From a virus (taxonomy: Duplodnaviria > Caudoviricetes), in IMG/VR virus record IMGVR_UViG_3300022602_000027: DNA of 64,000 nt; one strand, given 5' to 3'. Below are positions 1,937-21,066 of this stretch, in pieces. Below the pieces are notes generated by a model that worked only from the letters and a program-made list of their open reading frames with translations, did not search any database and was not told where the DNA came from. Within the stretch, counting starts at the first letter, position 1. Every line of letters starts with the position of its first letter. Position numbers and translations under genes: made by a program.

Positions 1937-1961
1937 ACTTGCTCCTTTTACGTATGTATAT

Positions 1962-1990
1962 ATTATAACACCTCCCGTAGGAGGTGTCAA
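1962..1990 (-). promoter_or_regulatory. sigma70-type promoter TTGACA-17-TATAAT with hairpin in spacer
   Basis: Perfect consensus on minus strand; ACACCTCC-TACG-GGAGGTGT at 1968-1987. Confidence 0.8.
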
Positions 1991-2006
1991 TTGGTACTAA
2001 GCCAAA

Positions 2007-5215: not shown

Positions 5216-5410
5216 TTATTCTGCCAAAGGTAATGCTAATGCTTCTTTAATAGCATCGATTAATTCGTCTTCACTGCCAACAATAACTTTGGCACTTTTC
5301 CAATCGTCATTGTCATCACGTCCACCTACTTCAATCATAAAGCCGTTGTCATAACGGTTGATGGTAAAGCTCTCGTTTGCTTTTACTAGTTTTTCTGAAA
5401 TTGCACTCAT
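5216..5410 (-). CDS. hypothetical protein (64 aa)
   Basis: ORF track; overlaps the RNase H stop. Confidence 0.7.
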   Translation of the reverse strand: MSAISEKLVKANESFTINRYDNGFMIEVGGRDDNDDWKSAKVIVGSEDELIDAIKEALALPLAE

Positions 5411-6399
5411 TTAAGTTCTCCTTGATATTTTGCCTGAAATGGCTCTGCATACTGCTGAATGTTATCAGCGATCTTTTTCATATCCCAAGCATTGCAGAAC
5501 TTGAGCATACGAATACCTACTTGGCTAACGTCTTTAGGAACTGCATTAGCCTTAATCGTTTCCTTAATCTTTTCTTTAATATCGTCCGGTTGTGCTGTTA
5601 AATCACATAATTGAACATTACGTTGATAATCTTCTAGCACACGATGTTCTAATCCGTTATGGTCAACCCATCTCTGAAGCATGAGATTGTTCCACGCAAA
5701 TCCTTTGGCTTTACGATCTTCGAACGCTTCAAGTAAACCAACTTTGTTTTTTGTACCTTTAGTACGCACACCTGGATACGCTGAGAAGACATTATCACTG
5801 GTATCACCGCGCATACATTTTTCGAACAGCATCCACTCTGGGTCTTGTGCTGGCTTCGGCTCGCCTGTCTTTTTGTCTTTAACCGGTTTACCTTTTGCAT
5901 CAAAGATACCTTCATGTGTAATGTGTAAATCACCTACGCCGTTATATTGACTAACAGTAGGACTTACCAATTGTGCAAAGTCGCCATCTGTTGAAATAAT
6001 AACGTGCTTTGCATCTGGATGTGCTTGTATCCAACCTGCAATCAAATCGTCAGCTTCTAAATTTTCGTGACGCATTACAGTAGCATTAGTTTTTTCTGTA
6101 ATGAAATTCTTAAACTCGTCAAATGCTTCCCAGAACAATTTATCTTCGTCTTGTTCTCTTTGAGTCATAGCCGCACGAGTTTCTTGTCTATTGGCCTTAT
6201 AGGGCTTGTAATAGTCTTTACGCCAGCTACGACCTTCGAGACAGAATACGATATGACTGCCACCAAAGTCTTGCCACGCTTTTTTGATACTGTTAAAAGT
6301 AATATGAAATGCCATACCGAGTTTAATATCGGACGACCCTTGAACTACGTGTCTAGCACGAAAAAATGTGTTAGCAGTATCAACTATAATATATGTCAT
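5407..6399 (-). CDS. rnh: T4-type RNase H / 5'-3' exonuclease (FEN family)
   Basis: N-terminal IIVDTAN, EADDLIA, ISTDGDFAQL and GDTSDNV motifs typical of FEN/5' nucleases. Confidence 0.88.
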   Translation of the reverse strand: MTYIIVDTANTFFRARHVVQGSSDIKLGMAFHITFNSIKKAWQDFGGSHIVFCLEGRSWRKDYYKPYKANRQETRAAMTQREQDEDKLFWEAFDEFKNFITEKTNATVMRHENLEADDLIAGWIQAHPDAKHVIISTDGDFAQLVSPTVSQYNGVGDLHITHEGIFDAKGKPVKDKKTGEPKPAQDPEWMLFEKCMRGDTSDNVFSAYPGVRTKGTKNKVGLLEAFEDRKAKGFAWNNLMLQRWVDHNGLEHRVLEDYQRNVQLCDLTAQPDDIKEKIKETIKANAVPKDVSQVGIRMLKFCNAWDMKKIADNIQQYAEPFQAKYQGELK

Positions 6400-6966: not shown

Positions 6967-7821
6967 TTAGGTACCCCATTCATTTTTAAATAAAGGCACT
7001 TGTAGTCTATCACTATAGCGTAAGCCTGCCTTCATAGCTAGTTCTGCTACACGACGATTGTTTAATGTATAAACACTTTCTACTCCGCCAACTGGCATCA
7101 AATATACTGCGCCAGTAAAACCAGCAAGTCGATATAAATCCATTACTTCTAATGCTTCATATGCATCGTCTTCTGTGGCTACAACAAATTTAAGATATGT
7201 ATAACCAACATCTTGATATTGCAAAAGCACATCTGGTTTGATAGCATCTTCACGTTTTTCACCACTACAACTCAATTTAGCACTTACACTAAATGTTACA
7301 TCTCTAGTATAATGCTCATGCCCAGTCTGCCATTGTAACAAGTAACGTTGAAAATCATCAGTTAATGCTTGAGTGCCATTAGTTTCAAATGTAATTTCTT
7401 TTAAGTTATACATGTTAGGATGATCCAATAGATCTGGATAAGCACGTTGCCAGCCTAACAATGGCTCACCGCCTGTGATAACCAAATGCTCATCTTGCCA
7501 TTGTTTGTATGGAAGGATCTCCATAATGCGATCTGCAATAGCATCGCTTGTGAGCATTGGACTAAGTTCTTTAAAACTAGGATGCCAACTAGCATAACTA
7601 TCACAACCTGTACTAACCAAAGGAAGTTCTTCATATTTGTTATATAGATGTACTACTGTAGCAATGTCTTCGGCTTCCGCACTTAGTTCGCCACGTGGCA
7701 TACCAAAACCTGCACATTTAAAATTACAACCAAATGTACGCAAGAAAACAGACGGTACACCCATGTAACGTCCTTCGCCTTGCACACTATAAAATAACTC
7801 GGCAATCTTAATTTTACTCAT
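6967..7821 (-). CDS. queE: 7-carboxy-7-deazaguanine synthase (radical SAM)
   Basis: IAELFYSVQGEG, VFLRTFGCNFKC, ITGGEPLL, FETNGT, YLMP and LQV motifs; clustered with folE, queD and dpdA. Confidence 0.88.
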   Translation of the reverse strand: MSKIKIAELFYSVQGEGRYMGVPSVFLRTFGCNFKCAGFGMPRGELSAEAEDIATVVHLYNKYEELPLVSTGCDSYASWHPSFKELSPMLTSDAIADRIMEILPYKQWQDEHLVITGGEPLLGWQRAYPDLLDHPNMYNLKEITFETNGTQALTDDFQRYLLQWQTGHEHYTRDVTFSVSAKLSCSGEKREDAIKPDVLLQYQDVGYTYLKFVVATEDDAYEALEVMDLYRLAGFTGAVYLMPVGGVESVYTLNNRRVAELAMKAGLRYSDRLQVPLFKNEWGT

Positions 7822-8050
7822 CTTCGTCTTTCTCTAAAAATTGACTTACTTGATCTTCTGCATTCTGCAATGAAGATGCATAAACACTAAATGTAGCAAC
7901 ACCTTTACTTGCCTTTACATCAAACGGAACAGTACCGTTTGGCAACCAGTTTGGTTCTACTTCTCTTTTAATTTCAAACCATTGCATTTCTGTATTTTTC
8001 ATACGGTAAATTAATTCATCTGTTAATTGTTTTGCTGTATTCATTCGCAA
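7814..8050 (-). CDS. hypothetical protein (78 aa)
   Basis: ORF track; overlaps neighbours. Confidence 0.65.
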   Translation of the reverse strand: MRMNTAKQLTDELIYRMKNTEMQWFEIKREVEPNWLPNGTVPFDVKASKGVATFSVYASSLQNAEDQVSQFLEKDEDE

Positions 8051-8430
8051 TCGCCTTGTTCTGCTAATTTTGATACTGCTGATTTTTCTTTGCGGTCTTT
8101 TCTAAAATTATCTACGTCTTCTATAGCACTGAGCAATGTTTGAGCATAGTTAAATGCTTGCTGTCGACGCATAACTAGAGTAGACTCTGTATCGACGTAG
8201 CCTTTTGTTAACAACGACCAAATAGCATGCCACCGATCCTTGTAAAACCAATTGCTTTTTACAGTTGTATAGATAGTAACACTAACTTCATGATCGTCAG
8301 CTTCTACCCATACATGATGATCGTGATCAGAAGCACCGCACTCGCAAGTAACTCGGTAGGCTTTTGAGTCTCCCCAGTCGTTTGTTTGCATAATGCCTTC
8401 GGCTGGTACTTGTATTTTTAGATCAGTCAT
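8041..8430 (-). CDS. hypothetical protein (129 aa)
   Basis: ORF track; CEC...HDHH possible metal site. Confidence 0.7.
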   Translation of the reverse strand: MTDLKIQVPAEGIMQTNDWGDSKAYRVTCECGASDHDHHVWVEADDHEVSVTIYTTVKSNWFYKDRWHAIWSLLTKGYVDTESTLVMRRQQAFNYAQTLLSAIEDVDNFRKDRKEKSAVSKLAEQGDCE

Positions 8431-9185
8431 TTTGAAGCATACTCCTGTTGCATTTTGATATTGTCAAAGAATTCTTTCTTTGTACCTGGATCATCTTTAA
8501 ATGCACCTTTTAATACTGTAGTCTGCGTTAAACTACTCTTAGCCATAATGCCTCGATTCTCACAGCAACCATGCGTAGCTTGAATGTATACACCTAAGTC
8601 TGTAGCGCCTGTGGTTTTTTCTATTTCCCTAGCAATATCGTTACACAACTCTTCCTGGAGAGTGCCGCGACGAGCACACCACTGAGCAATACGAGTGTAC
8701 TTAGACAAACCAATAAGTTTTTGTGCGGCGATGATACCAATGTAAGCGACACCAGTAACGGGCTGATGATGATGACTGCACATAGAGCGCAACTCACTAC
8801 GTACCACCAACATACCTTCGTATCTGTCTTCGCCATCGTTTGGAAATGCTGTTGCGTCTGGTGCTGGGTCATATCTGCCACTCATTACTTCATTAAAATA
8901 CATCTTAGCAAGGCGACGAGCTGTGCCTTTGCTATTAGGATCGTTTTCACGATCAATAAGCAAACGGTCAAGCACTAGTTCAAATGCTTCTGTTGCTTCA
9001 TCAATTAGTTTATCTTTAAATTCTTCTGTAACGTATTCGCTAATATTATCGCCAGCCCAAAAGCGTTTGCCTTCTCGTTTCATTTTAAATCGAAGATGAT
9101 CGCCTAGATATGCTTCTTCGTAACCGCCGTCGCCTGCCATAGCATCTAACCCTGTCTCAAATTTATATGTTTGTGATTCTGTCAT
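8427..9185 (-). CDS. folE: GTP cyclohydrolase I
   Basis: SMCSHH, GLSKYTR, TLQEEL and ATHGCCENRG motifs of GCYH-I. Confidence 0.93.
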   Translation of the reverse strand: MTESQTYKFETGLDAMAGDGGYEEAYLGDHLRFKMKREGKRFWAGDNISEYVTEEFKDKLIDEATEAFELVLDRLLIDRENDPNSKGTARRLAKMYFNEVMSGRYDPAPDATAFPNDGEDRYEGMLVVRSELRSMCSHHHQPVTGVAYIGIIAAQKLIGLSKYTRIAQWCARRGTLQEELCNDIAREIEKTTGATDLGVYIQATHGCCENRGIMAKSSLTQTTVLKGAFKDDPGTKKEFFDNIKMQQEYASK

Positions 9186-9202
9186 AAGTGTTCCTTTGTA
9201 CT

Positions 9203-9231
9203 ATTATATAGGTTTATTTAGGCAATTGCAA
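9203..9231 (-). promoter_or_regulatory. sigma70-type promoter TTGCAA-17-TATAAT (TAAATA in spacer)
   Basis: Directly upstream of the folE SD (AAAGGA). Confidence 0.6.
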
Positions 9232-9432
9232 TATTTTTCCTGCTCGAAGTTGTCGGCAGGCTTCTTTTACTTCAATCGGATAATCAGGCGAGATTTCCGA
9301 TATCGAACAATCATATCTTACAGTCATATGAGGATGTGTATAGTTCCAATAAATTGCAAAAATAATACCTGCAATACCTAATACTATTACACTATAAAAA
9401 TCTAAATTTTGTCTGATAGAAGTATCTTGCAT
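9214..9432 (-). CDS. small membrane protein (72 aa)
   Basis: ORF track; one hydrophobic helix. Confidence 0.55.
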   Translation of the reverse strand: MQDTSIRQNLDFYSVIVLGIAGIIFAIYWNYTHPHMTVRYDCSISEISPDYPIEVKEACRQLRAGKILQLPK

Positions 9433-9647
9433 AAGTCTGCGTCCTTTTTTGATTTAAAATAAAAATCCATTTTGTCCATAGCAGGATGGCTCGTAAAACG
9501 ATCACCTGGTAAACCAAATACTTCTATAACATTGGCACATGCTTCATTCCACCAAAACTTATTTTGGCCTTGCCACGGCAAACTAACTATATAAACAGGA
9601 CCTTCTTGCCTAGCGGCAATAGTCCCTACATTACGATGCTTTTTCAC
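9402..9647 (-). CDS. hypothetical protein (81 aa)
   Basis: ORF track. Confidence 0.55.
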   Translation of the reverse strand: MKKHRNVGTIAARQEGPVYIVSLPWQGQNKFWWNEACANVIEVFGLPGDRFTSHPAMDKMDFYFKSKKDADLCKILLSDKI

Positions 9648-9792
9648 GTTTTTTTAATTCGTTAAGCTCATCTTTTAAGTAGTCAAGATACATAGTTAGT
9701 GCTTCACGACCTTTATCAGTTAACGAGCGTGTAATATCTTCTTGAATCATTTTAATTTTATCTTCAAGTTCTTGTATAGATAACTCTTTCAT
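9631..9792 (-). CDS. small coiled-coil protein (53 aa, not in ORF track)
   Basis: Manual translation MKELSIQELEDKIKMIQEDITRSLTDKGREALTMYLDYLKDELNELKKREKAS; TAATG overlap with the upstream gene. Confidence 0.65.
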   Translation of the reverse strand: MKELSIQELEDKIKMIQEDITRSLTDKGREALTMYLDYLKDELNELKKREKAS

Positions 9793-9986
9793 TATTTCTT
9801 TCCAAAACGTAAACCAGTAATGCTACCTAACAATAAGAAATAAGCAAGCCATGTTTCTAATGTATATGGAATATGTAGCACTGGAAACAGTGTATTTAAA
9901 CTCCATATGCCTACAATAGGCCCAAATACAATAGCAATTACAATGAATGTAATACCAAAAATTAATTTAATTAATGCTGATGTCAT
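9792..9986 (-). CDS. small membrane protein (64 aa)
   Basis: Start moved to ATG 9986 (ATGA overlap with the PRTase stop); two hydrophobic segments. Confidence 0.65.
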   Translation of the reverse strand: MTSALIKLIFGITFIVIAIVFGPIVGIWSLNTLFPVLHIPYTLETWLAYFLLLGSITGLRFGKK

Positions 9987-10477
9987 AACCAAAAATCCTC
10001 CCACGGATAAACTAACCAGCAGTCTTCCTCTGCTTTGTTTACGGTCCAAACATAATAGTCTGGATCTTTAAATTCACTTGAAAAATTGTGTGTCAATACG
10101 GCAAAGCGAACAGTGTCTCCCCAGATGCTTGACCAAGCAGGATGTCCAGGTAATGCGCTTGATTCCCAGTCTTTCTTAATCCAGTTAACAGTAGATCCTT
10201 GATCATTGATATCATCAACAACTAGTATCTTTTTACCTTCAAAAGCATCTTCTGCCATGTTTAAATTACTAACCTTATCTCCACCGTCACGTAAACTAAT
10301 ATCTAAACTGTTCATTTTAATACCAGTATATTGACTTAAGAGATTAGCAGGAACAAGCCCGCCTCTAGTAATGCCTACAATATAATCAGGTTTCCAATTG
10401 TGTGCTGACATTTGGCGAGCAATATCTAATACTGCTCCTTCAACTTGTTGCCAGGTATAATAAACTTTTTTTATCAT
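9983..10477 (-). CDS. purine (xanthine/guanine-type) phosphoribosyltransferase
   Basis: VGITRGGLVPA and PRPP-binding loop ILVVDDINDQGST; C-terminal WLVYPWE typical of Gpt-like enzymes. Confidence 0.88.
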   Translation of the reverse strand: MIKKVYYTWQQVEGAVLDIARQMSAHNWKPDYIVGITRGGLVPANLLSQYTGIKMNSLDISLRDGGDKVSNLNMAEDAFEGKKILVVDDINDQGSTVNWIKKDWESSALPGHPAWSSIWGDTVRFAVLTHNFSSEFKDPDYYVWTVNKAEEDCWLVYPWEDFWL

Positions 10478-10719
10478 AAGAATGTTGGCGTAAATTTTTT
10501 AACTTGTCCACGACTAGATGAAATGCTGTCTACCATTTTATTATAGTCAATTTCGTCTAAGGCTGTTTTGTAAATGCTCATAGCTTGTGCCATCATAATA
10601 GCGGCAACTTCCATAGATCCATAACGTTCAACCATTTCAGTGGTAAATTCTAGATAAGTATCGTACAAATCTTGTAATTCATCACTCATGCTGTTAATCC
10701 GTATGCAAGTGTTTGACAT
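10474..10719 (-). CDS. hypothetical protein (81 aa)
   Basis: ORF track. Confidence 0.6.
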   Translation of the reverse strand: MSNTCIRINSMSDELQDLYDTYLEFTTEMVERYGSMEVAAIMMAQAMSIYKTALDEIDYNKMVDSISSSRGQVKKFTPTFL

Positions 10720-10922
10720 TCTTCTTTAGTCATAAAGAAATTGTATGTTTGACTTTCAACAACTTCTCCGTCTTTCAAAGACTCTTGAACCATGTCAATA
10801 CTAAACAAACCTTTAGGACTTAGTACTTCGTGTTTGTTAAGAGTTAATCGAAATCCTTCGTGCTCTTTGATAACCATTGTTTTAAATGTTCCTCTAACTG
10901 ATTCATGTAGTTCCATCTTCAT
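10686..10922 (-). CDS. hypothetical protein (78 aa)
   Basis: ORF track; SD AAGGAG upstream. Confidence 0.65.
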   Translation of the reverse strand: MKMELHESVRGTFKTMVIKEHEGFRLTLNKHEVLSPKGLFSIDMVQESLKDGEVVESQTYNFFMTKEECQTLAYGLTA

Positions 10923-11265
10923 CTCCTTTTATTGCTTCAAATGTTCTGTATTTGCCTAAAGCGTTAATGTACGCATCGTACAATTCTTTCAGCTTTGGAT
11001 GTTTAGCTTCTAGTTTAACATCTCGTTCGGGAATTTGCAATACCTTTTCGATTGTACTTAACCGTTCTTCCAAATCACGTCCATTAATAACCATATTACC
11101 TTTAACTTCTAGAGTAGGATTATCACCTTGATTGACAACCATTACTGCATCATAAGGACTAGCTACTGATGTTGCTGTAGTCCACGAAGTACCGTTTGAT
11201 CCTGCTGTTAGATATGATCCTGCTGGTATAGTTGGTAATGTTACGTTAGTTGGAAAGTAAGCCAT
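10903..11265 (-). CDS. hypothetical protein (~120 aa)
   Basis: Start moved to ATG 11265 (MAYFP); the track start lies deep inside the cupin gene. Confidence 0.65.
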   Translation of the reverse strand: MAYFPTNVTLPTIPAGSYLTAGSNGTSWTTATSVASPYDAVMVVNQGDNPTLEVKGNMVINGRDLEERLSTIEKVLQIPERDVKLEAKHPKLKELYDAYINALGKYRTFEAIKGDEDGTT

Positions 11266-11734
11266 TCTTTCTATCTGATAAGTATTTTTCAAAGTGGATC
11301 CATTTATTTTTAACAATAAATCCCCACTCACGTTGACGTTTTCCAACAAAGAACAATGTCCATGGAGTAACGCCTTCTGCCAATTCAATACGATGGAAAG
11401 TATGTGTGTTTCCAAAACGGAAACTACCTGGACCACGCCAGTATCTTACTTCGCATGTTTTGATTCCTTCTTCGTTAAACTGAGCAACCCACTCGTAGTA
11501 GCCGCCAGCAAGAATAATAGTAAAGTAGTTCCATGGGTGATCATGCACATCATCTGGATCCGATTTTAAGAACTTGTGTAAGAATACATTGTATGGAAAT
11601 GTTACACGTTCCTTAAACAAGACATAGTAACGTTCTAAATATGGTTCGTTTTCAGTACGATCCATAATAACACGTTTACGGTCATGGCGTTCAAGCCAAT
11701 TAAGGACGTGGTCTTTGATCTTCTGGAGTATCAT
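11246..11734 (-). CDS. cupin-fold metalloprotein
   Basis: HDHPW...YYE and FHRIEL metal-binding cupin pattern. Confidence 0.7.
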   Translation of the reverse strand: MILQKIKDHVLNWLERHDRKRVIMDRTENEPYLERYYVLFKERVTFPYNVFLHKFLKSDPDDVHDHPWNYFTIILAGGYYEWVAQFNEEGIKTCEVRYWRGPGSFRFGNTHTFHRIELAEGVTPWTLFFVGKRQREWGFIVKNKWIHFEKYLSDRKNGLLSN

Positions 11735-12101
11735 AGTGGTCTTTCACTAGTTTGTAAGTTGTTTTAAATTTTTCAAAGGCTATCTTTAAACCTGGATATT
11801 CTTCACACATTTTTTGTATTCGATTAAAATCTGGCATACAGTTCACAAACTCTTCCTGCATCTGCCATTCGTAACCGGTACCAGCGCCTCCGATAGTAAA
11901 TCCTGAACTAGAACTACTAGTTCCGCCACTACTAATAGTAATAGTATTAGCACTAATCCCGCCAATGCCAGCACCGGTATAGTAAAAACTTGTTCCTGTA
12001 GTGTTACCGATAGTAATATTTCCTGAAACTGCTCCGGTGTTTAGTGTAACAGTATCATTGGATGTTATCAAGTAATCCTCTAGCTGAGAAGAAGTTGTCA
12101 T
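11700..12101 (-). CDS. hypothetical protein with Gly/Thr/Ser-rich N-terminal half (133 aa)
   Basis: ORF track. Confidence 0.65.
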   Translation of the reverse strand: MTTSSQLEDYLITSNDTVTLNTGAVSGNITIGNTTGTSFYYTGAGIGGISANTITISSGGTSSSSSGFTIGGAGTGYEWQMQEEFVNCMPDFNRIQKMCEEYPGLKIAFEKFKTTYKLVKDHYDTPEDQRPRP

Positions 12102-13146
12102 GTAAGTCCTTTGCTTGTTTGCGTATGGAAGGTATTCTTGTAGAATAATTATCCATGTGTTCTATTATTTTACGGCATAAGTCTGGTCTGTAAACTGTGT
12201 ATGTGTTAAAATCTTCAGTCCATTTACTGTCGTATTTGAACATGTCGTAATACATTTCTGTGTAACTTAATCTATCTGGAACCATAGGAATAGCGTCAAC
12301 TACCGCACCTTCATAGCAACTAATGCCTAAAGTTTCTTGTAAGTTAGCACTAAACACCATCTTGGCTTCGCCTAACAAGTTATGATATTCATTTTTTGTT
12401 AGTTGTTGATCCTGACACACTACAAATTCATACTGCGGTAAGTGTGTAGCTAAGTCTCTAAAAATCTCAACTTGCTTCTCAGGTGCAATGCGATGAGGAA
12501 AAAGAATTAAATCACGCTTGGGCATATTCTTATACATGGTTAATGTATCATTCATATACTCCATTGGCCAGCCAGTTCGAACATATTTTCCATCTTCTAG
12601 CATATCTGCTTTGTCCTCTTCTTCCCAAGGATTTTCAACCATGCCATCATTTAATAAATTATGATGGAACATATCAATATGGAAAGTAGTGGCAAAGTAA
12701 TTATGATCAAATGCCGCAAAGAATGATTTTTCTGCATGACGTACCCAAGGCTTGTTGCCAACAAGGCGCCCTAAGAAGTCTTGAGGATCATAACTACCGG
12801 CATGCCATAGTCCATGTGTGACTACTGGAATGTTTAGTAGTTCACTCATATATTTTAAGTTTATTATGCCAGGATGCCAAGCATCAGTGAAGATGAAATG
12901 ATCGCCAGGCTGAACTGATCCGGAGCAAAATAGACGCCCCATTTGTTCCACTTGTCGAGACTTATAGATATTGGTGCCGCCAAAATTAAGAAAAGCACCA
13001 GGAGTAGTGGCTGAAGGAATATCCTCAGGGCCAGATATAATTTGAACATTGTGTCCTGCCTTTCGTAAGAGATTAGGTACATGGCGTTTCCATTCGCCAG
13101 TGTACCTTGTCTCAACTGCTTCTAAATCAATTAGAAATACGGTCAT
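12055..13146 (-). CDS. GT-B fold glycosyltransferase (GT4-like)
   Basis: HRIAPEKQVEIF and QETLGISCYEG (E-x7-E) retaining GT-B signatures. Confidence 0.8.
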   Translation of the reverse strand: MTVFLIDLEAVETRYTGEWKRHVPNLLRKAGHNVQIISGPEDIPSATTPGAFLNFGGTNIYKSRQVEQMGRLFCSGSVQPGDHFIFTDAWHPGIINLKYMSELLNIPVVTHGLWHAGSYDPQDFLGRLVGNKPWVRHAEKSFFAAFDHNYFATTFHIDMFHHNLLNDGMVENPWEEEDKADMLEDGKYVRTGWPMEYMNDTLTMYKNMPKRDLILFPHRIAPEKQVEIFRDLATHLPQYEFVVCQDQQLTKNEYHNLLGEAKMVFSANLQETLGISCYEGAVVDAIPMVPDRLSYTEMYYDMFKYDSKWTEDFNTYTVYRPDLCRKIIEHMDNYSTRIPSIRKQAKDLHDNFFSARGLLDNIQ

Positions 13147-13384
13147 TGTTGTATCTCGGATTCTTACCTAGATAAGGCTTACGTTCACCAGTGAACGGTT
13201 TCTTAGGACGACGGCTCTTTTCAAAGTTGCGCCAGACCCAGCTTTCTCTGTTATAGAGATGACTCTCATCGAATGGATGTAATTCCAAACGACACCAGTT
13301 ATGAAAAGCCTCAAGATCGTCAAAGATTTTAACGATATCAGGACGGGTTGAAAAATAACTGATTTCTTTGTAGTTCTTAGCCAT
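13127..13384 (-). CDS. hypothetical protein (85 aa)
   Basis: ORF track. Confidence 0.65.
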   Translation of the reverse strand: MAKNYKEISYFSTRPDIVKIFDDLEAFHNWCRLELHPFDESHLYNRESWVWRNFEKSRRPKKPFTGERKPYLGKNPRYNNDRISN

Positions 13385-13396
13385 TATAGCCTCTTG

Positions 13397-13798
13397 TTAG
13401 TATTTGATAAATGAACCATTTTCTCCATCTTCGGAGACCTCAATCCAAACCTCACGGTCAGGATACTTTTGTGAAATCATGTCATATAAATCATCTGACA
13501 TCATTTCGCAACTTTTATAATCTAGTTTTAGTATACTATCTTTGTATAGATTTTCCACCCAGCGTTTGAACTGGATGAATTCGACATCACGGTCGTTGTG
13601 GGTAACTGAAAGCCAAACGCGAAAATGGAATATATGACGATGAGGAGTAGCCAAAAACGATACATCATATTCATCTCCTGTTGCTAAGTTTGGATCTGTT
13701 GCGGCCGCTGGATAAGCGTGAATGCCTTCTTTCTGGAAAGTAACCCAGATCATTTTGTTTGGTCGAATGTCTTGTTTAATAATCATATTGTTTCCCAC
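13397..13798 (-). CDS. queD: divergent 6-carboxy-tetrahydropterin synthase (QueD-like)
   Basis: EGIH...PHRHIFHF Zn-binding His pattern, NDRDVEF, SCEMMS; context of folE, queE and dpdA. Confidence 0.7.
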   Translation of the reverse strand: MGNNMIIKQDIRPNKMIWVTFQKEGIHAYPAAATDPNLATGDEYDVSFLATPHRHIFHFRVWLSVTHNDRDVEFIQFKRWVENLYKDSILKLDYKSCEMMSDDLYDMISQKYPDREVWIEVSEDGENGSFIKY

Positions 13799-14199
13799 AT
13801 ATTTGGATCTAAATCTACTGCGTTGTCATATCTTGTTAGATGGTCATTGTTTTGAATTGTAACATGTGCATGACAATTACGACATAATACATCTAAATTT
13901 TCTTCATCGCTATTATGACGATTACCGTCAATATGATGAACATCTAGTTGTTCTGGACCAATAATATGTGCTGTACACACAAATCCATATTTTGTAGTTG
14001 TATTAGAACAGCCATTGTTCATTTTCCAGTTATCAACTTCAATCTTTTGACCTCCTCTATGACATTCACAAAACATTTTCCATTTTGCGCCAACTGTAGT
14101 GTTGACTTTTTTATATGTTTTATGAAATCCTACCCTGTTATTACAACCAGGTAATGCACATTTCGGAGCATGATTGTTTATTACTGCACGTTTCCTCAT
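13783..14199 (-). CDS. HNH endonuclease (free-standing, probably homing)
   Basis: DVHHIDGNRHNSDEENLDVLCRNCH; N-terminal CALPGC...CECH Zn-binding pattern. Confidence 0.8.
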   Translation of the reverse strand: MRKRAVINNHAPKCALPGCNNRVGFHKTYKKVNTTVGAKWKMFCECHRGGQKIEVDNWKMNNGCSNTTTKYGFVCTAHIIGPEQLDVHHIDGNRHNSDEENLDVLCRNCHAHVTIQNNDHLTRYDNAVDLDPNMWETI

Positions 14200-14723
14200 T
14201 TTATGATCTCATCATTTGTATATTCATCCCAATTGGTAAAATATTTCCTTTGAGTAATTGCACCAATCGGTACACACCAAACGCCGGGATTTGTGGCGTC
14301 GAAATCTTTATCATCAATCTTAATTGTAGCATTATACCCAAGTTGTCCTATATAAGGCAATTTTACACTAATTTGTGGAATAAATCTACGATGTTCGGTT
14401 AAACCGCTTTCTAATACACCTTCATGTTCACTAACATCAAAGTCTAGAGTACACCAATAACCTGCATCTAAACAACCTTGTATCATGTCTTCCCATGGGC
14501 GCCAACCTGGTATATCATTGACGCCTTTAGTGCCAAAACTTTGATTAGCACCGAAATAGATATGTGTACAATCATTATTTTTAGCAAGGCTAATAATAAC
14601 TTGTTCGTCGTGTGTACCTACTACGAACAAAGTTTTCATACCGTATGCAGGAGTGCGTTCAATTTCAGTACCGACAAAGAATGTTACATCTTCACTAGTA
14701 CCTGTAGTATATTCACGTTTCAT
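14196..14723 (-). CDS. hypothetical protein (175 aa) within the dpd locus
   Basis: ORF track; globular composition; no family recognised. Confidence 0.75.
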   Translation of the reverse strand: MKREYTTGTSEDVTFFVGTEIERTPAYGMKTLFVVGTHDEQVIISLAKNNDCTHIYFGANQSFGTKGVNDIPGWRPWEDMIQGCLDAGYWCTLDFDVSEHEGVLESGLTEHRRFIPQISVKLPYIGQLGYNATIKIDDKDFDATNPGVWCVPIGAITQRKYFTNWDEYTNDEIIK

Positions 14724-14973
14724 TTGTAAATTTCTTTCCTTCTTCCCAATATTTGATCATACGTTGTACATCTTCCATACGTTCTTGTATAACGTGTGGG
14801 GCCTCACGTTCTAATTCTTTTAAATTATGATAGCTAGGATAATGACGTAAACACCAACGAGCTTGTTCACGTATTTCTTTTGGAATACGTGGAGTCTTTT
14901 GAGGATTCATCAGATCCTGCAAAAACTCCTCAGTTCGCTGTATGCTTCTAAAGCGTTCGTCGGGTAATGTCAT
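14713..14973 (-). CDS. hypothetical protein (86 aa)
   Basis: ORF track; ATGA overlap with the dpdA stop; MTLPDER...LRHYP. Confidence 0.7.
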   Translation of the reverse strand: MTLPDERFRSIQRTEEFLQDLMNPQKTPRIPKEIREQARWCLRHYPSYHNLKELEREAPHVIQERMEDVQRMIKYWEEGKKFTNET

Positions 14974-16679
14974 AGTTCAAATAACGATTCGTTGAGTACA
15001 GGTTTAACTGGTTCTTTGACTACTTTTTCAATAGTTAAATTACCTTCAAATTCAATATGCACATCTGCCATTGCACTAGCATTGGTAATTCTATCACCAG
15101 TATTGCCTCTAGTGCCAATGATACGATCAAAATAGTCACCATAGAATTCAATTAAGTCTAAAGCATCTTGTCTATTGTCTATGCTAAAAATTAAATCAAC
15201 GATGTCTTTAAACTTATTTGGACCTGGACTATAATCTCTATGGGTTTTAGTTTCAGCAGTAGTAGCATTTAGCATTGCAGGAATGACACCAGCATCGCTT
15301 TGACGATTGGCTTCTTGCACAGCATTACAATGCATCCAAACATTATGTCCCATCATAATAGCATAAGTGAAACTATCCCAACTAGTACGTCCTTCTTTGC
15401 CTACTTTATTTAGATCGCCGGGTGCGTAGATGCAAATGTCTTTCATTAATACTTGATCCATAATTGGACTAGATTCAAATCTATCAAAAATATTGTCTTG
15501 TACTACTGCGTCTTTAAATAGCCTTGTATCGTTAGCATACTTCTTGTCATCGGCAGATGCTTGCATACGATAGACCCATTTGTCTGCATGTGGAGTTTCT
15601 GTAGCCATATAAATTTGTCCATTAGCAGTTGCTAAGAATGGACTTGCACAGTCAAAACTAATTGTAAAGTCTGGATTGTGATATTTGCGAACAGCACGTT
15701 GAATGTCAGTTAGTAGTACAGCCCATTCTAGTTTGCTAGTACCTAAGAAGTGCATCCAATCTTGGTGCCCTTGTTCTAACAATCCATCAAATCGCAAGTG
15801 TACTAGACGCTTCAACACTAAATGAACATCGCACATATTCTGTCCACCCATTGCCCAACCATTAAATGGTTTGTCATATTTGTTAGGATCGCAGAAATCT
15901 TTCATTTCATTATACCAATCATCTGCATCTGCGTGATTTTCACCTTGTAGAACGTTTAAGAACTTACAAGCACCTGTGCGATGTTTGATCCAATATTCGT
16001 TGTTGTATTTGGTTGCTGATACTGCTTCAGCATATGAGCTGATACCTGTAGCTTTAATACCTGCTGGACTGCGACATACCCATGCTGGAATATCAAGTAC
16101 CATACCATAATCCATATAAGCATCCATCCAACGCAACACTTGATCACGTTTCTTTTGTGCGGCGTCTAATTGTGCTTGATAAAGTTTAGGATGATCTACT
16201 TTGGTATATTTTTGATTACCATTCTTATCAGTTTTAGGATGTCCTGTTGGATGAAATTGCGGAACAAGCTCAACACCTAGGGCATTTACTTCTGCCCACT
16301 TAGCGGCAACTTCTGGCCCATTAGGATCCCGCCACTCGCCTTCCCATACGCCTTTACCAATCTGGAATCCACCTGAATCGCCTAGTACCCAACTAGTTGA
16401 GCGATCTCGATTACGGAACATGTCTTCAGACTCGTCTGGTTTACTCATGTCTAGATTAGCATGTCCAGCTGAGTAAAGACAATGATCATAATAGAACATA
16501 CCTTTCTCTGGTTCGAGATAGTTAAGACTTTCTACACTACCATTAAAACTTGCAGGTAGTCGAGCAGGATCTACGTAATTACTGTAACGCTGTCTACCAA
16601 TAAAAGTAGAATAGAATCCACTAGTTGCTGGCAAAAAGTATGCGTAATCGTTTTGTGTTGCAGTTAAGTTCTTATTCAA
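14970..16679 (-). CDS. dpdA: tRNA-guanine-transglycosylase-family DNA base-exchange enzyme (DpdA-like)
   Basis: TGT motifs VLGDSGGFQ, MVLDIP, LNVLQG, WAMGG, HFLGTS and SFDCASP; clustered with folE, queD and queE. TTG start uncertain. Confidence 0.82.
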   Translation of the reverse strand: MNKNLTATQNDYAYFLPATSGFYSTFIGRQRYSNYVDPARLPASFNGSVESLNYLEPEKGMFYYDHCLYSAGHANLDMSKPDESEDMFRNRDRSTSWVLGDSGGFQIGKGVWEGEWRDPNGPEVAAKWAEVNALGVELVPQFHPTGHPKTDKNGNQKYTKVDHPKLYQAQLDAAQKKRDQVLRWMDAYMDYGMVLDIPAWVCRSPAGIKATGISSYAEAVSATKYNNEYWIKHRTGACKFLNVLQGENHADADDWYNEMKDFCDPNKYDKPFNGWAMGGQNMCDVHLVLKRLVHLRFDGLLEQGHQDWMHFLGTSKLEWAVLLTDIQRAVRKYHNPDFTISFDCASPFLATANGQIYMATETPHADKWVYRMQASADDKKYANDTRLFKDAVVQDNIFDRFESSPIMDQVLMKDICIYAPGDLNKVGKEGRTSWDSFTYAIMMGHNVWMHCNAVQEANRQSDAGVIPAMLNATTAETKTHRDYSPGPNKFKDIVDLIFSIDNRQDALDLIEFYGDYFDRIIGTRGNTGDRITNASAMADVHIEFEGNLTIEKVVKEPVKPVLNESLFEL

Positions 16680-16851
16680 TTTTGCCCCATTTAATCTTTA
16701 ACCAAAGTCTTTCCATAATATAGTGTACAGCAGTTAGAATGACATGTATAAAAATAGCATCGCTTAATCCAGTCCATATGGCAGTTATTAACAATGCTAT
16801 TATTCTATAGCTTAATGCTCTAACTACTGTACGTTTATGAAGTTCAACCAT
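16672..16851 (-). CDS. DUF2061-like small membrane protein (59 aa, not in ORF track)
   Basis: Manual translation MVELHKRTVVRALSYRIIALLITAIWTGLSDAIFIHVILTAVHYIMERLWLKIKWGKIE; R..RA.SYR and YI.ER.W..I.WG pattern. Confidence 0.7.
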   Translation of the reverse strand: MVELHKRTVVRALSYRIIALLITAIWTGLSDAIFIHVILTAVHYIMERLWLKIKWGKIE

Positions 16852-17594
16852 TACTTGCTTTGTGCTGGAAGTATGTATTCGTAAACTGTAGTACCACTGT
16901 CTACAATAATTGCCAACGCACCTGCATCTGCAATCTTCATAGTAATGTCGCCTGACAACGCTAAAATAGCTTGTACTTGATTAACTGGCCATGACCATGT
17001 TTGTTTTAGTTTACCTGTAACACCGCTTTGGAACACAAATGATCCTGCGTGTGTACTTGCATCACCAAATTTAAATACCAAATTACCATTGTCTGTTGAA
17101 ACTTGAAAAACTGTTTCTTCTGTATGTGCCGCCGCCTGATATTTTAAACGCTGGATAGCAGTTACAGTAGGTTCAAATTCTACATCCCATGTTGTACCTT
17201 TGAATTTAACAGTCTTTAATTTTTCTGTAATGACTTCAAGAGTCATAAAACGATAATCGTTTTCGAAATCGCCTGTTGAATTTTGAAAATGTAAACCTGT
17301 CGGAATGTCTTCGCCATTGCGTTGTTGCATAACAACATTGATGCCAGCGCCTTCTTTATATTCCGGGCATTTCAAATGCAAATCTAATTTGTTCAGTTGA
17401 GGCATACCAAATACACCATCTAATCCATCTACTGGATTATGTGTTTTAGCATTAAGGATAACTGAACGATCTTCAGCCATTGATTCAACACTAGTTCCTT
17501 TTGAACTAGCCGTTACCTTAACCAAAGGTAAAAATCCTAAACTATGTGTGTGTGCTACTAAATCTTGTAAAAAGTCTTTCATATGATTCTCCAT
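16851..17594 (-). CDS. probable DNA polymerase sliding clamp (gp45/PCNA-like)
   Basis: About 243 aa with two-domain beta-rich composition; replication context (PolB, RFC-like loader). Assignment is inference. Confidence 0.55.
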   Translation of the reverse strand: MENHMKDFLQDLVAHTHSLGFLPLVKVTASSKGTSVESMAEDRSVILNAKTHNPVDGLDGVFGMPQLNKLDLHLKCPEYKEGAGINVVMQQRNGEDIPTGLHFQNSTGDFENDYRFMTLEVITEKLKTVKFKGTTWDVEFEPTVTAIQRLKYQAAAHTEETVFQVSTDNGNLVFKFGDASTHAGSFVFQSGVTGKLKQTWSWPVNQVQAILALSGDITMKIADAGALAIIVDSGTTVYEYILPAQSK

Positions 17595-17602
17595 GTTTTA
17601 TT

Positions 17603-17630
17603 ATTATACAGTATTTTGTGACTATGTCAA
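17603..17630 (-). promoter_or_regulatory. sigma70-type promoter TTGACA-16-TATAAT
   Basis: Upstream of the clamp-DUF2061-dpdA run. Confidence 0.65.
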
Positions 17631-18398
17631 TGTTTTTCTAACTCGTTTGTTATATTTTATTGCCGATTCTACTAAAGTATGCGATATTTGCAAACTATCA
17701 GCATAATGTACAAAGGCATTAGTGTCTTTGGGGAAACAAGCACCACCAAAACCACGGCTTCCGTCGGGACCTGGAACTTGCATATGGCTTGTGCCAATAC
17801 GCTCGTCCAATTTGAGTAATTCGATAACCTTATTATAATCAGCGCCATTAGCTTGACACATGTCATATAACTGATTAAAGAACGCTACTTTGACACTTAG
17901 GAAACAATTAGTGGCATATTTTACCATAGCCGCTTCTGTCAGTGTGCAATGTTCAATCTTATTTAGGTTTTTGAGAGAAACAATGAATAATTCTCTCCAA
18001 ATATTTCCAGGATTATCACCACCTAAAATCATGTATTCCTGATTAGCAAAGTCTTCGTTAGCACTTACAGCACGTAAGAACTCTGGGCTATAGGCAATAC
18101 TATGTTTGGGATAATTTACTAGTAGTCTATTTAGGTAATCTGGACGTACTGTACATTTAATTAATACAGGCATTGTTTCAGGAACTGTATCCATTACTTG
18201 ATATATTTGACTTACATCGCAATCACCTATCGACGTCATAGGAGTACCGACACAGATAATAACTCCATCGGCATCTGGATAATCTTTTACTGTTTGTTCA
18301 CTTATTTTTGGATCAACAATATATACTGTGTTTGTTTGATCAATGGCACTGGCAACAGCCTTGCCAACAAATCCGTAACCTGCAATTATAATTTTCAT
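17622..18398 (-). CDS. UDP-glucose/GDP-mannose dehydrogenase-family protein (lacks C-terminal domain)
   Basis: GYGFVG Rossmann, CVGTP, PEFLRA, KYATN and GFGGACFPKD; start moved to MKIIIAG at 18398. Confidence 0.88.
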   Translation of the reverse strand: MKIIIAGYGFVGKAVASAIDQTNTVYIVDPKISEQTVKDYPDADGVIICVGTPMTSIGDCDVSQIYQVMDTVPETMPVLIKCTVRPDYLNRLLVNYPKHSIAYSPEFLRAVSANEDFANQEYMILGGDNPGNIWRELFIVSLKNLNKIEHCTLTEAAMVKYATNCFLSVKVAFFNQLYDMCQANGADYNKVIELLKLDERIGTSHMQVPGPDGSRGFGGACFPKDTNAFVHYADSLQISHTLVESAIKYNKRVRKTLT

Positions 18399-18399
18399 A

Positions 18400-21066
18400 T
18401 TAAAACTCGAATAGGCTATTAAATGTATTTTTCTCTTCAGTACTAGCAACGTCCCATTTTAGAACACCGATTAAGTTATCTAATTTGTTATCGATAATAG
18501 TCTGCTCCATTTCTGCATGATCAAAAGGAAGATCCTTAAACCATTGTGGTAAACGTAGTTCATCAACTGGATATGCAACACTAGTAAAGCCTAGCGGATT
18601 AGGTTTGAGTTTACATACAATAACTTTGGCGCCGTCTGTAATACTCATAGAGTATTTGTCATTGTACATACGCTTGAGGGTATTCCAATTAATACTTGCA
18701 CGAACATGGCCAGGCATATTTGCTTTACCTGCTTTGGCTTCTTTACCTTGATATTCAGTAATCTTGTTAGCACGTTTAGGCGAACCTTTTTCCCAACCCG
18801 GACGAGCTTTAAACTTGATACGGAATTCACTAATGTGATCTAGAACTTCTTGTTCAGGTTTACCCATTAGCACCATTTCAAGAACATCGCTTAAGAAATT
18901 TTGAATAAATTCAGGAGTATCACTACGCTTTAGGTCCAAGCCCATAGCTTTAATCTTACCAGGCTTGCCTTCTACGTCTGTACGTTTACCTTCTTTATCA
19001 TAGTAAAGAACTGCATAACGTTTCTTAGTAATAAACAAACTCTTAGAGCCAACAATTTCACGTCCAGCTTTAATAACTTCTCCACGCGACTTAGGTACAT
19101 GAAATGCATCTAGCATGAACTGTGGAAATGTAGTGTTAACTTCATCTCCAATTGTGTCATACAGTTGTATTACTGTTTCTTTTGTCCAGGGGATGGTACC
19201 TTTTTCAATGTCCTTCTGTAGAGTGCTATAAGCACTAAAATAACAACTATCAGTGTCACCATATATTACTGCCTTTCCTATGTGATTATAATCGCCAGTT
19301 ATGATTTCATTTACTTTACTAGCCATATGTTTAGCGATCTGGCGTCCAGTAAGAGTAGTGGACTGCCCAATACGCTTATCAAAGAACCTACAACCGCTAT
19401 TAAGAATAGCACCATACAAACTATTGAGGTTAATTTTCTTAACCAACTGTCTTTTGTCCCAATATTCTTCTTCAACTTTATTCCCCGCCTTAATGGCATC
19501 CTTTAGTTTAGCCTGCATTTCTTTACGTTCGGCATACCAACGTTTGAGTAATCCAGGAATAATACCTTCTGTTTCGTGCGTAAAGATAGTACCATTGGCA
19601 CTCATCATCCAAGGTTGATTGCTTTCAAATATAAGTCTGTAGACTTCTGCGGCACTAAGTACATCAGTATCTCCATTTTCCCAGTCAATGGTAATGTCTG
19701 TACCAATTTCTTGATTCATTACAGCAGTATATTCAATAGTACCAAACATACCTTCCCACGCCGCGGCAAACGACTTTCCTTTCGCCATTAAGTTTTCAAT
19801 ATACTCATCAGTCTTAGTTGGACGTAACTGTCCAATAATAGTTTCTGGACCCATATTAAGTGCTCTAATTGCACTAGGATACAGTGAGTTAATATCTAAA
19901 GATCCAACCCAATCTTGTAATCCTTCTTTAGGATATGCAACATACGCACCTGCCGCCGCAGTATCTTCACGATCACTCATTTTAATACGATTAGGAACAA
20001 CGAATCCTCTGCGATGTGCTTCATTAATAATAGCTTGTTCAGTAACGGCTACAGCACCCATTGTAGTTTGTAGCAATACAGTATTTTCATGTGCTAGTGT
20101 ATTTGCTAAATCGATAAACTTTAGTTTTCTATCTAGTTTTTCAAGTAGCATACAGTCATTGATGTTGTATTCAACAAATGTTTTAAAGTCATTGTTGTAT
20201 AACTGATCCAATGTACCTTCGTATTGTGTTTTACGTTCACCTAATTCATATTCTGCAATAGCATCTAGTCGATAACTATGTCGTTCTTCATATGTATATT
20301 TGCGATACAACTCTAAATAGTCTAAATGTACACGACCAATGTAGTCATATGTAACAGCATTACGACCATATTTTTCATATTCACGGCGCTTAGGTAACTG
20401 ATCAAACAAACAAAAACGTCTAGTGTCTTCTTTGCCTAATGTTTTAATAACACGGTTAGTAGTATAGGGAATATCAAAGCCTTCTGAGTTCCAACCACTT
20501 ACAATATCTGCATCTTTAATTAGATCTAAGAACATGTCTAATAAGTCTGCTTCATTATCAAACAAATAAGTGTTAGGAAATTCTTTAACCATTTCCTTAG
20601 CATCTTCCATACCAAGGCCCTTAGGAGGAATAGCTAGGCATACCATTGTTTGTAACCATTGTAGGTAGACAGCAATCGCAGTAATTGGCATAAATGCATC
20701 GTCTGGACTAGCATAGCCACGCTCTGGATCGAAGTCTACCTCAATATCGAAAAATGCTACATTTAACTTAGGAGCATCTTGATTAAGATAGTTTTCACTT
20801 AGTGTTACAAAGATAGGATTAATGTCTGCTTCGTACATTGTCTTGCCACTGTTGATAGCTTGTTCTTTACGAAGTTCTTTTGTGTTTTTACAGACAATCC
20901 TTTGTACAGGATCTCCATAAATTGATTGATGTTTCCCTCTCGGGTCTTTTACATAAAATGTGTGGCGTACAGGAATATCTCTAAATTCCCTTTCGCCTTT
21001 TTGGTTGCGTTCAACGATCTTGATGATATCGTTGTCACGGTCAAACCATGCGTCAACGTAAGACAT
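18400..21066 (-). CDS. family B DNA polymerase (T4 gp43-like)
   Basis: Exo I FFDIEVD; Pol motifs SLDINSLYPS, KKINLNSLYG, YGDTDS and KKRY. Confidence 0.97.
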   Translation of the reverse strand: MSYVDAWFDRDNDIIKIVERNQKGEREFRDIPVRHTFYVKDPRGKHQSIYGDPVQRIVCKNTKELRKEQAINSGKTMYEADINPIFVTLSENYLNQDAPKLNVAFFDIEVDFDPERGYASPDDAFMPITAIAVYLQWLQTMVCLAIPPKGLGMEDAKEMVKEFPNTYLFDNEADLLDMFLDLIKDADIVSGWNSEGFDIPYTTNRVIKTLGKEDTRRFCLFDQLPKRREYEKYGRNAVTYDYIGRVHLDYLELYRKYTYEERHSYRLDAIAEYELGERKTQYEGTLDQLYNNDFKTFVEYNINDCMLLEKLDRKLKFIDLANTLAHENTVLLQTTMGAVAVTEQAIINEAHRRGFVVPNRIKMSDREDTAAAGAYVAYPKEGLQDWVGSLDINSLYPSAIRALNMGPETIIGQLRPTKTDEYIENLMAKGKSFAAAWEGMFGTIEYTAVMNQEIGTDITIDWENGDTDVLSAAEVYRLIFESNQPWMMSANGTIFTHETEGIIPGLLKRWYAERKEMQAKLKDAIKAGNKVEEEYWDKRQLVKKINLNSLYGAILNSGCRFFDKRIGQSTTLTGRQIAKHMASKVNEIITGDYNHIGKAVIYGDTDSCYFSAYSTLQKDIEKGTIPWTKETVIQLYDTIGDEVNTTFPQFMLDAFHVPKSRGEVIKAGREIVGSKSLFITKKRYAVLYYDKEGKRTDVEGKPGKIKAMGLDLKRSDTPEFIQNFLSDVLEMVLMGKPEQEVLDHISEFRIKFKARPGWEKGSPKRANKITEYQGKEAKAGKANMPGHVRASINWNTLKRMYNDKYSMSITDGAKVIVCKLKPNPLGFTSVAYPVDELRLPQWFKDLPFDHAEMEQTIIDNKLDNLIGVLKWDVASTEEKNTFNSLFEF

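Follow-up and report, generated by a model that had tools for sequence, protein, structure and literature searches.

Why does a phage locus for replacing guanine in DNA carry a conserved glycosyltransferase, and how could such a locus work without QueC? This question is raised by positions 6967-18398 of the virus record IMGVR_UViG_3300022602_000027 (IMG/VR; Caudoviricetes), which was analysed as one stretch of 64 kb; this stretch is called the window, and all coordinates are relative to it. FolE, QueE, DpdA and a QueD paralogue are encoded there together with a GT4-like glycosyltransferase (GT), and each gene listed in the initial annotation was recovered where it had been placed, on the minus strand. 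The results support a 7-deazaguanine DNA-modification locus of the QueC-less type, and strongly support a link of the GT to this pathway. That the pathway includes a sugar-related step, ending on the DNA base, has in our view about an even chance of being right.

QueC-less 7-deazaguanine synthesis and insertion

The gene that had been annotated as queD-like (13397-13798, minus strand) encodes a QueD paralogue of 133 aa without the catalytic cysteine. Cui et al. (2023) proposed such a paralogue, DpdL, as the decarboxylase of 7-carboxy-7-deazaguanine (CDG) in the Cellulophaga phage phiST; its signature is the QueD motif CxxxHGH altered to LxxxHRHxF (PMC10516641). Phage phiST has FolE, QueD, QueE, DpdL and DpdA3 and no QueC, and all of its G is replaced by the deoxynucleoside of 7-deazaguanine (dDG); other QueC-less phages with DpdL include ACP17 (PMC10516641). 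The window protein reads L-ATP-HRH-I-F (motif L-x3-HRH-x-F). It was aligned in register with phiST gp040 and the DpdL of ACP17, and has Leu where the true QueDs have Cys. The tblastn search showed 34% identity to phiST gp040 (E-value 1e-8), 54% to ACP17, 55% to PA5oct-like phages and 64% to Phosso; single-sequence scans of Pfam, PHROG and NCBIfam matched only phrog_17812, a family of unknown function. By its sequence signature the gene is dpdL and not queD, and the former assignment was rejected on the published DpdL motif and on the Leu in place of the catalytic Cys. In the Vibrio phage Bakedbeans, the DpdL domain forms the C-terminal third of a 383-aa protein (gp176; L100 6212-7363), and no Pfam match was found for its N-terminal part of about 260 aa.

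The second key enzyme is the DpdA-like DNA guanine transglycosylase of 569 aa (14970-16679, minus strand). Its sequence gave no match in Pfam, PHROG or NCBIfam, and none in the PDB by sequence search. For AlphaFold2, 48 homologues belonging either to its own clade or to that of PA5oct were aligned and used as input. The model (pLDDT 87.4) has the fold of the tRNA-guanine transglycosylases (TGT) in residues 1-524 and a disordered tail in residues 525-569, and its best 50 Foldseek matches in the PDB were all tRNA-guanine transglycosylases. D101 (DSGGFQ) and D343 (SFDCAS) are invariant across the 48 homologues; by their motifs, they presumably correspond to the two catalytic aspartates of the Zymomonas TGT. 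Profile alignment (hhalign) with the DpdAs of BUDD, ACP17, BCSR5 and phiST gave a probability of 91.8% (E-value 7e-7), and the language-model (Atlas) features also point to viral TGT/DpdA clusters. As judged from the predicted fold, the 569-aa protein is a divergent DpdA.

The C-terminus of this protein reads ...SLFEL, after the disordered tail of ~45 residues (14970-15101), and that of the family B DNA polymerase (PolB) reads ...SLFEF (18400-18420). The likeness suggests that the two might share a clamp-binding peptide. In the relatives the PolB tail is constant; LFE-type DpdA tails occur in a minority only, the others ending with S(V/I)HDIT. The DpdA tails of BUDD and ACP17 are LEELFG and LDELFE.

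Of the deazapurine synthesis genes, FolE and QueE are both encoded in the window. FolE (GTP cyclohydrolase I, 252 aa, 8427-9185, minus strand) matched PF01227 (7.6e-38) and NF006824 (1.4e-37). The within-clade comparison covered 80 IMG/VR loci with a GT identity of at least 79%, and each count is based on the loci spanning the interval in question; FolE was kept in 44/44 of them. The QueE-like radical-SAM CDG synthase (284 aa, 6967-7821, minus strand) matched phrog_2076 (3.5e-51), and the QueE models of NCBIfam below their cut-offs. Of 65 homologues, 63-64 share its cluster cysteines C32, C36 and C73. The Cys spacing CX3CX36C is the same in PAC2, BUDD, Ahp1 and CP220; a compact spacing, CX3CX2C, is found in ACP17, Phosso and RHph. 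The 175-aa, 129-aa, 85-aa and 133-aa proteins of the locus showed no profile similarity to QueE.

No true QueD (CxxxHG[HY] T-fold, PF01242) was found in the 64-kb window. The 129-aa open reading frame (ORF) between FolE and QueE (8041-8430) was tried as a hidden QueD and showed no similarity to QueD or to PTPS, the pyruvoyl-tetrahydropterin synthase family. In two related IMG/VR contigs a QueD (PF01242) is located 53-57 kb from the GT, on the PolB side. By this comparison the QueD of the window phage would lie close to 66 kb, slightly outside the window; QueD could also be supplied by the host.

QueC, QueF and Gat-QueC were absent from the 47 window ORFs scanned with Pfam, a scan that left out the smaller ORFs and the four largest remaining ones. 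QueC was also not found in five related contigs from IMG/VR (89-139 kb; CheckV 24-40% of the genome), two of which jointly span about 226 kb around the locus. The PAC2, ACP17, Phosso and RHph_I1_18 genomes, all complete, likewise yielded none. In BUDD, the QueC search gave a PP-loop match under the cut-off. Small PP-loop proteins resembling phosphoadenosine phosphosulfate (PAPS) reductase are encoded inside the clusters of BUDD (7885-8379 of L005) and BCSR5 (11267-11914 of L093); they might activate the carboxylate of CDG in QueC's stead.

The missing QueC is already explained, because DpdL belongs to a known QueC-less pathway that gives dDG in phiST. The absence fits that published pathway and therefore does not by itself imply that CDG is inserted. 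Since DpdL is the proposed CDG decarboxylase of the pathway, the expected core base is 7-deazaguanine, and the initial suggestion of CDG as the inserted base was not supported.

The window locus resembles that of phiST in FolE, QueE, the LxxxHRHxF DpdL, a TGT-fold DpdA, the lack of QueC among the ORFs scanned and the neighbourhood of replication genes. However, the phiST genome contains no member of the GT family, its DpdA3 has 259 aa (569 aa in the window) and its DpdL is 34% identical. The GT, a 175-aa protein, a cupin, a phosphoribosyltransferase (PRTase) and a short gene of the UDP-glucose dehydrogenase (Ugd) family are what the window has beyond phiST.

The glycosyltransferase and its linkage to DpdL and DpdA

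The GT (363 aa, 12055-13146, minus strand) was classified as a GT4-like enzyme of the GT-B type by its fold and family alignment. The window sequence alone gave no match in Pfam, PHROG or NCBIfam, or in the PDB by sequence search. An exhaustive HMMER search recovered 1097 cluster representatives of the family from a 50%-identity library, and PF00534 (Glycos_transf_1) was matched by 35/59 aligned members (best E-value 3e-8). In the alignment (n=59), all members share E279, and conservation reaches at least 90% at E271 and at the donor-binding pair R219 and K224. The motifs E271-x7-E279 and R219-x4-K224 are the patterns of retaining GT4 enzymes, and their spacing is that of MshA.

The AlphaFold2 model (pLDDT 95.2) showed a GT-B fold of two Rossmann domains. 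The best Foldseek matches in the PDB were BshA, glycogen synthase, GlgM, MshA, PglA, LmbT, SenB and a tetrahydrobiopterin glucosyltransferase, with a probability of 1.00 for BshA, glycogen synthase, MshA and PglA. BshA and MshA, retaining GT4 enzymes that transfer the sugar of UDP-N-acetylglucosamine (UDP-GlcNAc) to the hydroxyl of a small molecule, share about 10% sequence identity with the GT, which is viral and tied to deazaguanine genes. Among viral models the best match was the ACP17 orthologue (template modelling score, TM, 0.86-0.91). The model suggests that the GT looks like an active nucleotide-sugar transferase; the acceptor is not readable from the fold. The isoelectric point is uninformative on DNA binding by the GT, as DpdA and PolB are equally acidic.

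Two known systems may be compared. The alpha- and beta-glucosyltransferases of T4 are also GT-B enzymes encoded beside genes for a non-canonical base, and presumably block restriction in the same way. However, they act on the hydroxymethyl group of a pyrimidine, and no hydroxymethylcytosine pathway was found in the scanned window ORFs; no T4-type DNA glucosyltransferase was among the top 50 PDB matches of the GT. In eukaryotic tRNA, mannosyl- and galactosyl-queuosine carry a sugar on a 7-deazaguanine derivative installed by TGT, and would serve as a precedent for such a step. There the acceptor is the cyclopentenediol hydroxyl of queuosine in RNA, whereas the window locus has no queuosine-tailoring genes and its target is DNA.

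The initial annotation had made its reading depend on a tie between the GT and dpdA in related phages, and this tie was borne out: ten or more independent lineages have the GT next to DpdA or DpdL. The Pseudomonas jumbo phage PA5oct and its relatives (Wroclawvirus) have a syntenic locus of PolB, clamp, DpdA-like protein, GT, DpdL, PRTase, QueE and RNase H. For example, the gene order in PAC2, syntenic with the window, is PolB, PCNA, a small gene, DpdA-like protein, GT, DpdL, a small gene, a fragment of a short-chain dehydrogenase/reductase (SDR), PRTase, QueE, further genes and RNase H. The identity to the window is about 50% for PolB, 32% for DpdA, 43% for the GT and 55% for DpdL. The PA5oct-like locus differs in having no FolE, cupin or Ugd-like gene, and contains a truncated SDR epimerase instead.

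In the other cultured phages the genes are arranged differently and the association persists. The order is QueD, FolE, the 175-aa homologue, DpdA, GT, DpdL and QueE in ACP17, where the GT is located between dpdA and dpdL. It is PolB, clamp, a 177-aa gene, DpdL, GT, FolE and QueE in Phosso; FolE, further genes, GT, DpdA, DpdL and QueE in BUDD; and DpdL, further genes, GT, DpdA and QueE in BCSR5. Seven distant metagenomic members of the GT family (29-37% identity) were also compared, one of which (L096) is too short to judge. DpdL is adjacent to the GT or within 2 kb of it in five of the six judgeable contigs (L094, L095, L103, L104 and L106; GT identity 29-35%), and two of these five belong to phages with a family A DNA polymerase (PolA). 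In a phage collection of 50,697 records, DpdL was found in 28, the GT in 22 and both in 17 (about 0.01 by chance); these records are not phylogenetically independent and represent roughly five lineages.

Within the clade of the window, the GT and DpdL were kept in 43/43 spanning loci, as were the cupin and the 85-aa and 175-aa proteins, and the GT and DpdL, with a mean identity of 84-85%, are as conserved as PolB.

Published experiments bear on two of these phages. The DNA of PA5oct was inferred to contain a modified G, in GA and/or GG, the structure of which is unpublished; the phage is restricted by modification-dependent END nucleases, one of them targeting modified G (PMC12191111). The authors of that work point to QueE and a PTPS gene, and the GT and DpdA are unmentioned in that context (PMC12191111). 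Expression of dpdL and dpdA of ACP17 in E. coli, without the GT, gave no dDG, and the authors suggest that further enzymes may be needed (PMC10516641).

Accessory genes and the phage

All genes from 4.7 to 21 kb of the window are on the minus strand, closely packed or overlapping. The GT and DpdL are indeed one small ORF apart, as the initial annotation described; it encodes a basic protein of 85 aa (13127-13384, minus strand, pI 9.5), which is clade-specific among the loci searched. The conserved 175-aa protein (14196-14723, minus strand) has no match in Pfam, PHROG or NCBIfam, and Atlas gave only leads with scores below 0.9. In ACP17 its homologue immediately precedes DpdA on the upstream side; in L106, a PolA-type contig, DpdL and a radical-SAM gene flank it.

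The cupin-type metalloprotein (open frame 11246-11734, minus strand; start 11665 as called in a relative) matched phrog_4786 (1e-35), and an HxH...H pattern was read by eye. Among the loci searched, homologues were confined to the clade. The protein that takes its place in PAC2 was considered as a counterpart and is unrelated, being the truncated SDR epimerase.

The 6-oxopurine (xanthine/guanine-type) PRTase (164 aa, 9983-10477, minus strand; PF00156 2.1e-14) is nearest in structure to the xanthine/guanine PRTases 1vdm, 4z1o and E. coli XGPRT. A homologue occupies the equivalent position in PAC2, and none was found in the ACP17, BUDD and BCSR5 loci. The enzyme may salvage the guanine released by DpdA or convert a deazapurine to its nucleotide. 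In the metagenomic contig L105 (845-6333), the genes around a GT family member encode a second GT4, a PurT-like enzyme of the ATP-grasp type, a PRTase and a NUDIX hydrolase; the PRTase and NUDIX pair resembles deazapurine nucleoside antibiotic pathways.

Several sugar-related enzymes are found beside the module. A Gfo/Idh/MocA-like oxidoreductase and a medium-chain (MDR, ADH_N) dehydrogenase lie between DpdA and the 175-aa gene in 41/80 related loci (e.g. L006 6473-8253). Where the relatives have this pair, the window has an insertion similar to HNH homing endonucleases (13783-14199, minus strand; weak PF01844 match and PHROG HNH families), which occurs in only 3/80 related loci and is outside the pathway. 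The presence and absence of sugar-type oxidoreductases fits a glycan under diversification. In BCSR5, a PIG-L/LmbE-like deacetylase is encoded two genes before the GT (L093 11927-12634; sub-threshold Pfam match, 4.7e-5), and in PhiXhv-12, GlmS and a BshB-like (LmbE/PIG-L-type) deacetylase directly precede it (L097 4669-7903). LmbE/PIG-L-type deacetylases are the partners of BshA and MshA. By analogy, the deacetylases beside the GT hint at a GlcNAc donor and at chemistry in which GlcNAc is transferred and then deacetylated, as with BshA/BshB and MshA.

The short Ugd-family dehydrogenase (259 aa, 17622-18401, minus strand; PF03721 and PF00984) lies between the clamp and PolB, in agreement with the initial annotation. 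Translation probably begins with the ATG at 18401, in overlap with the stop codon of PolB, and the next gene follows 28 bases downstream. An NAD-binding domain with the Rossmann motif and a central domain are present, as is the catalytic-Cys motif GGACFPKD, which aligns to GGSCFPKD of the Ugd 4a7p. However, the protein ends about 30 residues past this motif, and the UDP-binding C-terminal domain is absent: the alignment covers residues 81-303 of the 446 aa of 4a7p and positions 70-298 of the 413 of TIGR03026. Among 60 relatives spanning the PolB-clamp interval, the gene is present in 49 and absent in 11; it is fast-evolving (58% identity), and all 53 carriers have it in the short form, with a stop-to-stop length of 260-289 aa. 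The Campylobacter phage CP220, a known carrier of deoxy-7-amido-7-deazaguanosine (dADG), also has a short Ugd-like gene without the UDP-binding domain (256 aa, GFGGKCFPKD), two genes downstream of QueE (L098 4004-4774).

Co-occurrence of both the GT and the Ugd-like gene with dpdA had been proposed as a check. For the GT it held, beside DpdA or DpdL, in at least ten lineages; the Ugd-like gene was not found in the GT/DpdA loci examined of the PA5oct-like phages, Phosso, ACP17 and BUDD. The uronic-sugar step proposed from this gene is thus a weak guess, because the UDP-binding domain that defines the family is lacking and those loci are without the gene. The Ugd-like gene is peripheral to the module, and may still be linked to the pathway given the CP220 case.

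On either side of the module are replication genes: a 5'-3' exonuclease (5407-6399, minus strand), a clamp-like protein (16851-17594, minus strand; phrog_12062) with homologues in the PAC2 PCNA and the Phosso clamp, and PolB (18400-21066, minus strand), identified by Pfam. The owner of the module is an uncultured freshwater jumbo phage of about 350-375 kb, a distant relative of PA5oct and Phosso. Related contigs reach 347-375 kb, and the clade comprises at least 598 viral contigs. Near-identical DNA was found in freshwater and lake metagenomes of at least 15 studies from 2012 to 2023, and had no match in the phage collection. Elsewhere in the window, a single ORF of 4269 aa (51078-63887, minus strand) runs almost to the window end and adjoins a T4 gp9/10-like baseplate gene (50080-51078); its product is probably a giant structural or fibre protein. 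A ClpB-like double-AAA chaperone (33517-35802) and a DnaJ homologue (36258-37124) are encoded on the minus strand, PhoH on the plus strand (40886-41605), and a MoxR/VWA pair at 752-3098.

Proposed pathway and alternative explanations

From the gene identities, protein folds, catalytic motifs and conserved linkage, we infer what DpdL acts on, which donor and acceptor the GT uses and which base results, as follows. FolE, the distal QueD (about 55 kb away) and QueE would convert GTP to CDG. DpdL would process CDG, probably to 7-deazaguanine by the decarboxylation already proposed for it, and DpdA would then exchange guanine in the phage DNA for the deazapurine after replication. The GT, an integral part of the module, might put a hexose or N-acetylhexosamine from a nucleotide sugar on the deazapurine, either on DNA or as the free base, and the PRTase would most likely recycle the released guanine. 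The outcome would be virion DNA with a sugar-bearing 7-deazaguanine, which could block restriction.

A wider reading is that guanine gives way to a sugar-bearing 7-deazapurine in the DpdL-GT-DpdA phages, among them PA5oct, ACP17, Phosso, BUDD and BCSR5, and that accessory enzymes, which differ between lineages, diversify the sugar in the manner of O-antigen loci. This remains tentative, with chances somewhat below even. The diversifying set would consist of the Gfo/Idh/MocA and MDR dehydrogenases, the LmbE deacetylase and the short Ugd-like enzyme; the latter, without its UDP-binding domain, might have a previously attached sugar as its substrate.

Several observations weigh against a sugar on the base. 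In the window phage and in all GT-bearing relatives, this base is a prediction from genes and folds. The decarboxylase role assigned here to DpdL by analogy has so far the standing of a proposal in the literature. At C7, 7-deazaguanine carries neither a hydroxyl nor a carboxyl group, and it offers no obvious acceptor for the O-glycoside that is usual for GT4 enzymes; a C- or N-glycoside, another product of DpdL, or action of the GT on CDG or another intermediate would be needed. The nearest solved structures of the GT modify small molecules and not DNA, and a phage DNA alpha-glucosyltransferase ranks only 26th among the viral folds (TM 0.48). The linkage also has exceptions. The GT of L105 is without DpdL in the 7 kb available of that contig, and the family member of PhiXhv-12 is away from any DpdL, with a QueE-like gene present in that phage. 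Conversely, DpdL phages without the GT exist: the GT-family profile found nothing in the whole genomes of phiST, RHph_I1_18, Bakedbeans, Ahp1 and D479, in a search to which the positive controls responded. As phiST has plain dDG without a GT, the GT is not needed for base exchange. Finally, the absence of QueC covers the scanned ORFs of the window and the relatives searched, and the remaining ~280-310 kb of this genome are unseen.

The alternative that survives best is that DpdA installs plain dDG as in phiST and the base is not altered further. The GT would then be co-located for historical or regulatory reasons, and would glycosylate something else, such as another DNA base, a protein of phage or host, or a host glycan. 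It gains from the full dDG of phiST with the same QueC-less gene set (PMC10516641), from the lack of an obvious O-acceptor in dDG and from the generic GT4 fold of the GT. However, the GT is kept right beside DpdL or DpdA in at least ten otherwise dissimilar lineages, with both PolB-type and PolA-type phages among them. In addition, every checked cultured lineage with a GT family member also has QueE, and the scanned window ORFs contain no pyrimidine pathway of the hydroxymethylase type. This explanation is considered rather unlikely.

Less probable still is that the GT acts on a small molecule before insertion, such as the free deazapurine or a pterin, for carriage, solubility or trapping, so that the sugar is absent from DNA or is removed or rearranged by DpdL. 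The best structural neighbours do glycosylate small molecules, and the acceptor of the tetrahydrobiopterin glucosyltransferase is a pterin; the adjacency of DpdL and the GT is also the most constant feature of the module, and the two evolve equally slowly. However, TGT enzymes need a base with a free N9-H, and a glycosylated intermediate would mean extra steps with no obvious benefit. We also know of no precedent for such a role.

Only a slim chance is given to a pre-replicative route, in which the PRTase makes a deazapurine nucleotide that reaches the polymerase as a dNTP, and DpdA has a minor or repair role. In tubercidin and toyocamycin biosynthesis, nucleotides of deazapurines are formed by PRTases; the 6-oxopurine PRTase is conserved here and in the PA5oct-like phages, and a dNMP kinase is encoded beside DpdL in phage D479. 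However, the conserved DpdA appears from its motifs to be catalytically intact, and the PRTase was not found in the ACP17, BUDD and BCSR5 loci examined. DpdA is moreover present in every deazaguanine-modified phage, and insertion after replication has been argued (PMC10516641).

The version of the initial annotation, in which CDG is inserted for want of QueC and then receives a uronic sugar from the Ugd-like enzyme, is slimmer still: in a queC mutant, DpdA2 can insert CDG with low efficiency, and the CDG deoxynucleoside occurs in one archaeal virus (PMC10516641), the CDG carboxylate could take a glycosyl ester, and the Ugd-like gene is widely kept and has its counterpart near the CP220 QueE, but DpdL is present and universally conserved, and the dehydrogenase lacks its UDP-binding domain and was not found in the PA5oct-like, Phosso, ACP17 and BUDD loci examined.

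The QueC-less core with DpdL is known, whereas the conserved GT and its companions are undescribed in the searchable literature. The published natural 7-deazaguanine modifications of DNA that were found have small C7 groups or none, and no description of a glycosylated 7-deazaguanine, or of this GT, was found. To our knowledge, phage DNA glycosylation has involved pyrimidines only; we know of no report of a glycosylated purine in DNA, and the base proposed here would be the first, if true.

GT-bearing phages are already in culture, and direct testing is feasible. If the sugar-bearing base is real, an abundant group of phages has a GT built into its deazaguanine pathway, which would be new chemistry and would extend sugar hypermodification to purines. 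It could account for the failure to reconstitute dDG in E. coli with dpdL and dpdA of ACP17, and would identify the modified G of PA5oct, a candidate phage for therapy. It would also bear on the defence of bacteria by restriction, CRISPR and modification-dependent nucleases, and on the sequencing of such genomes.

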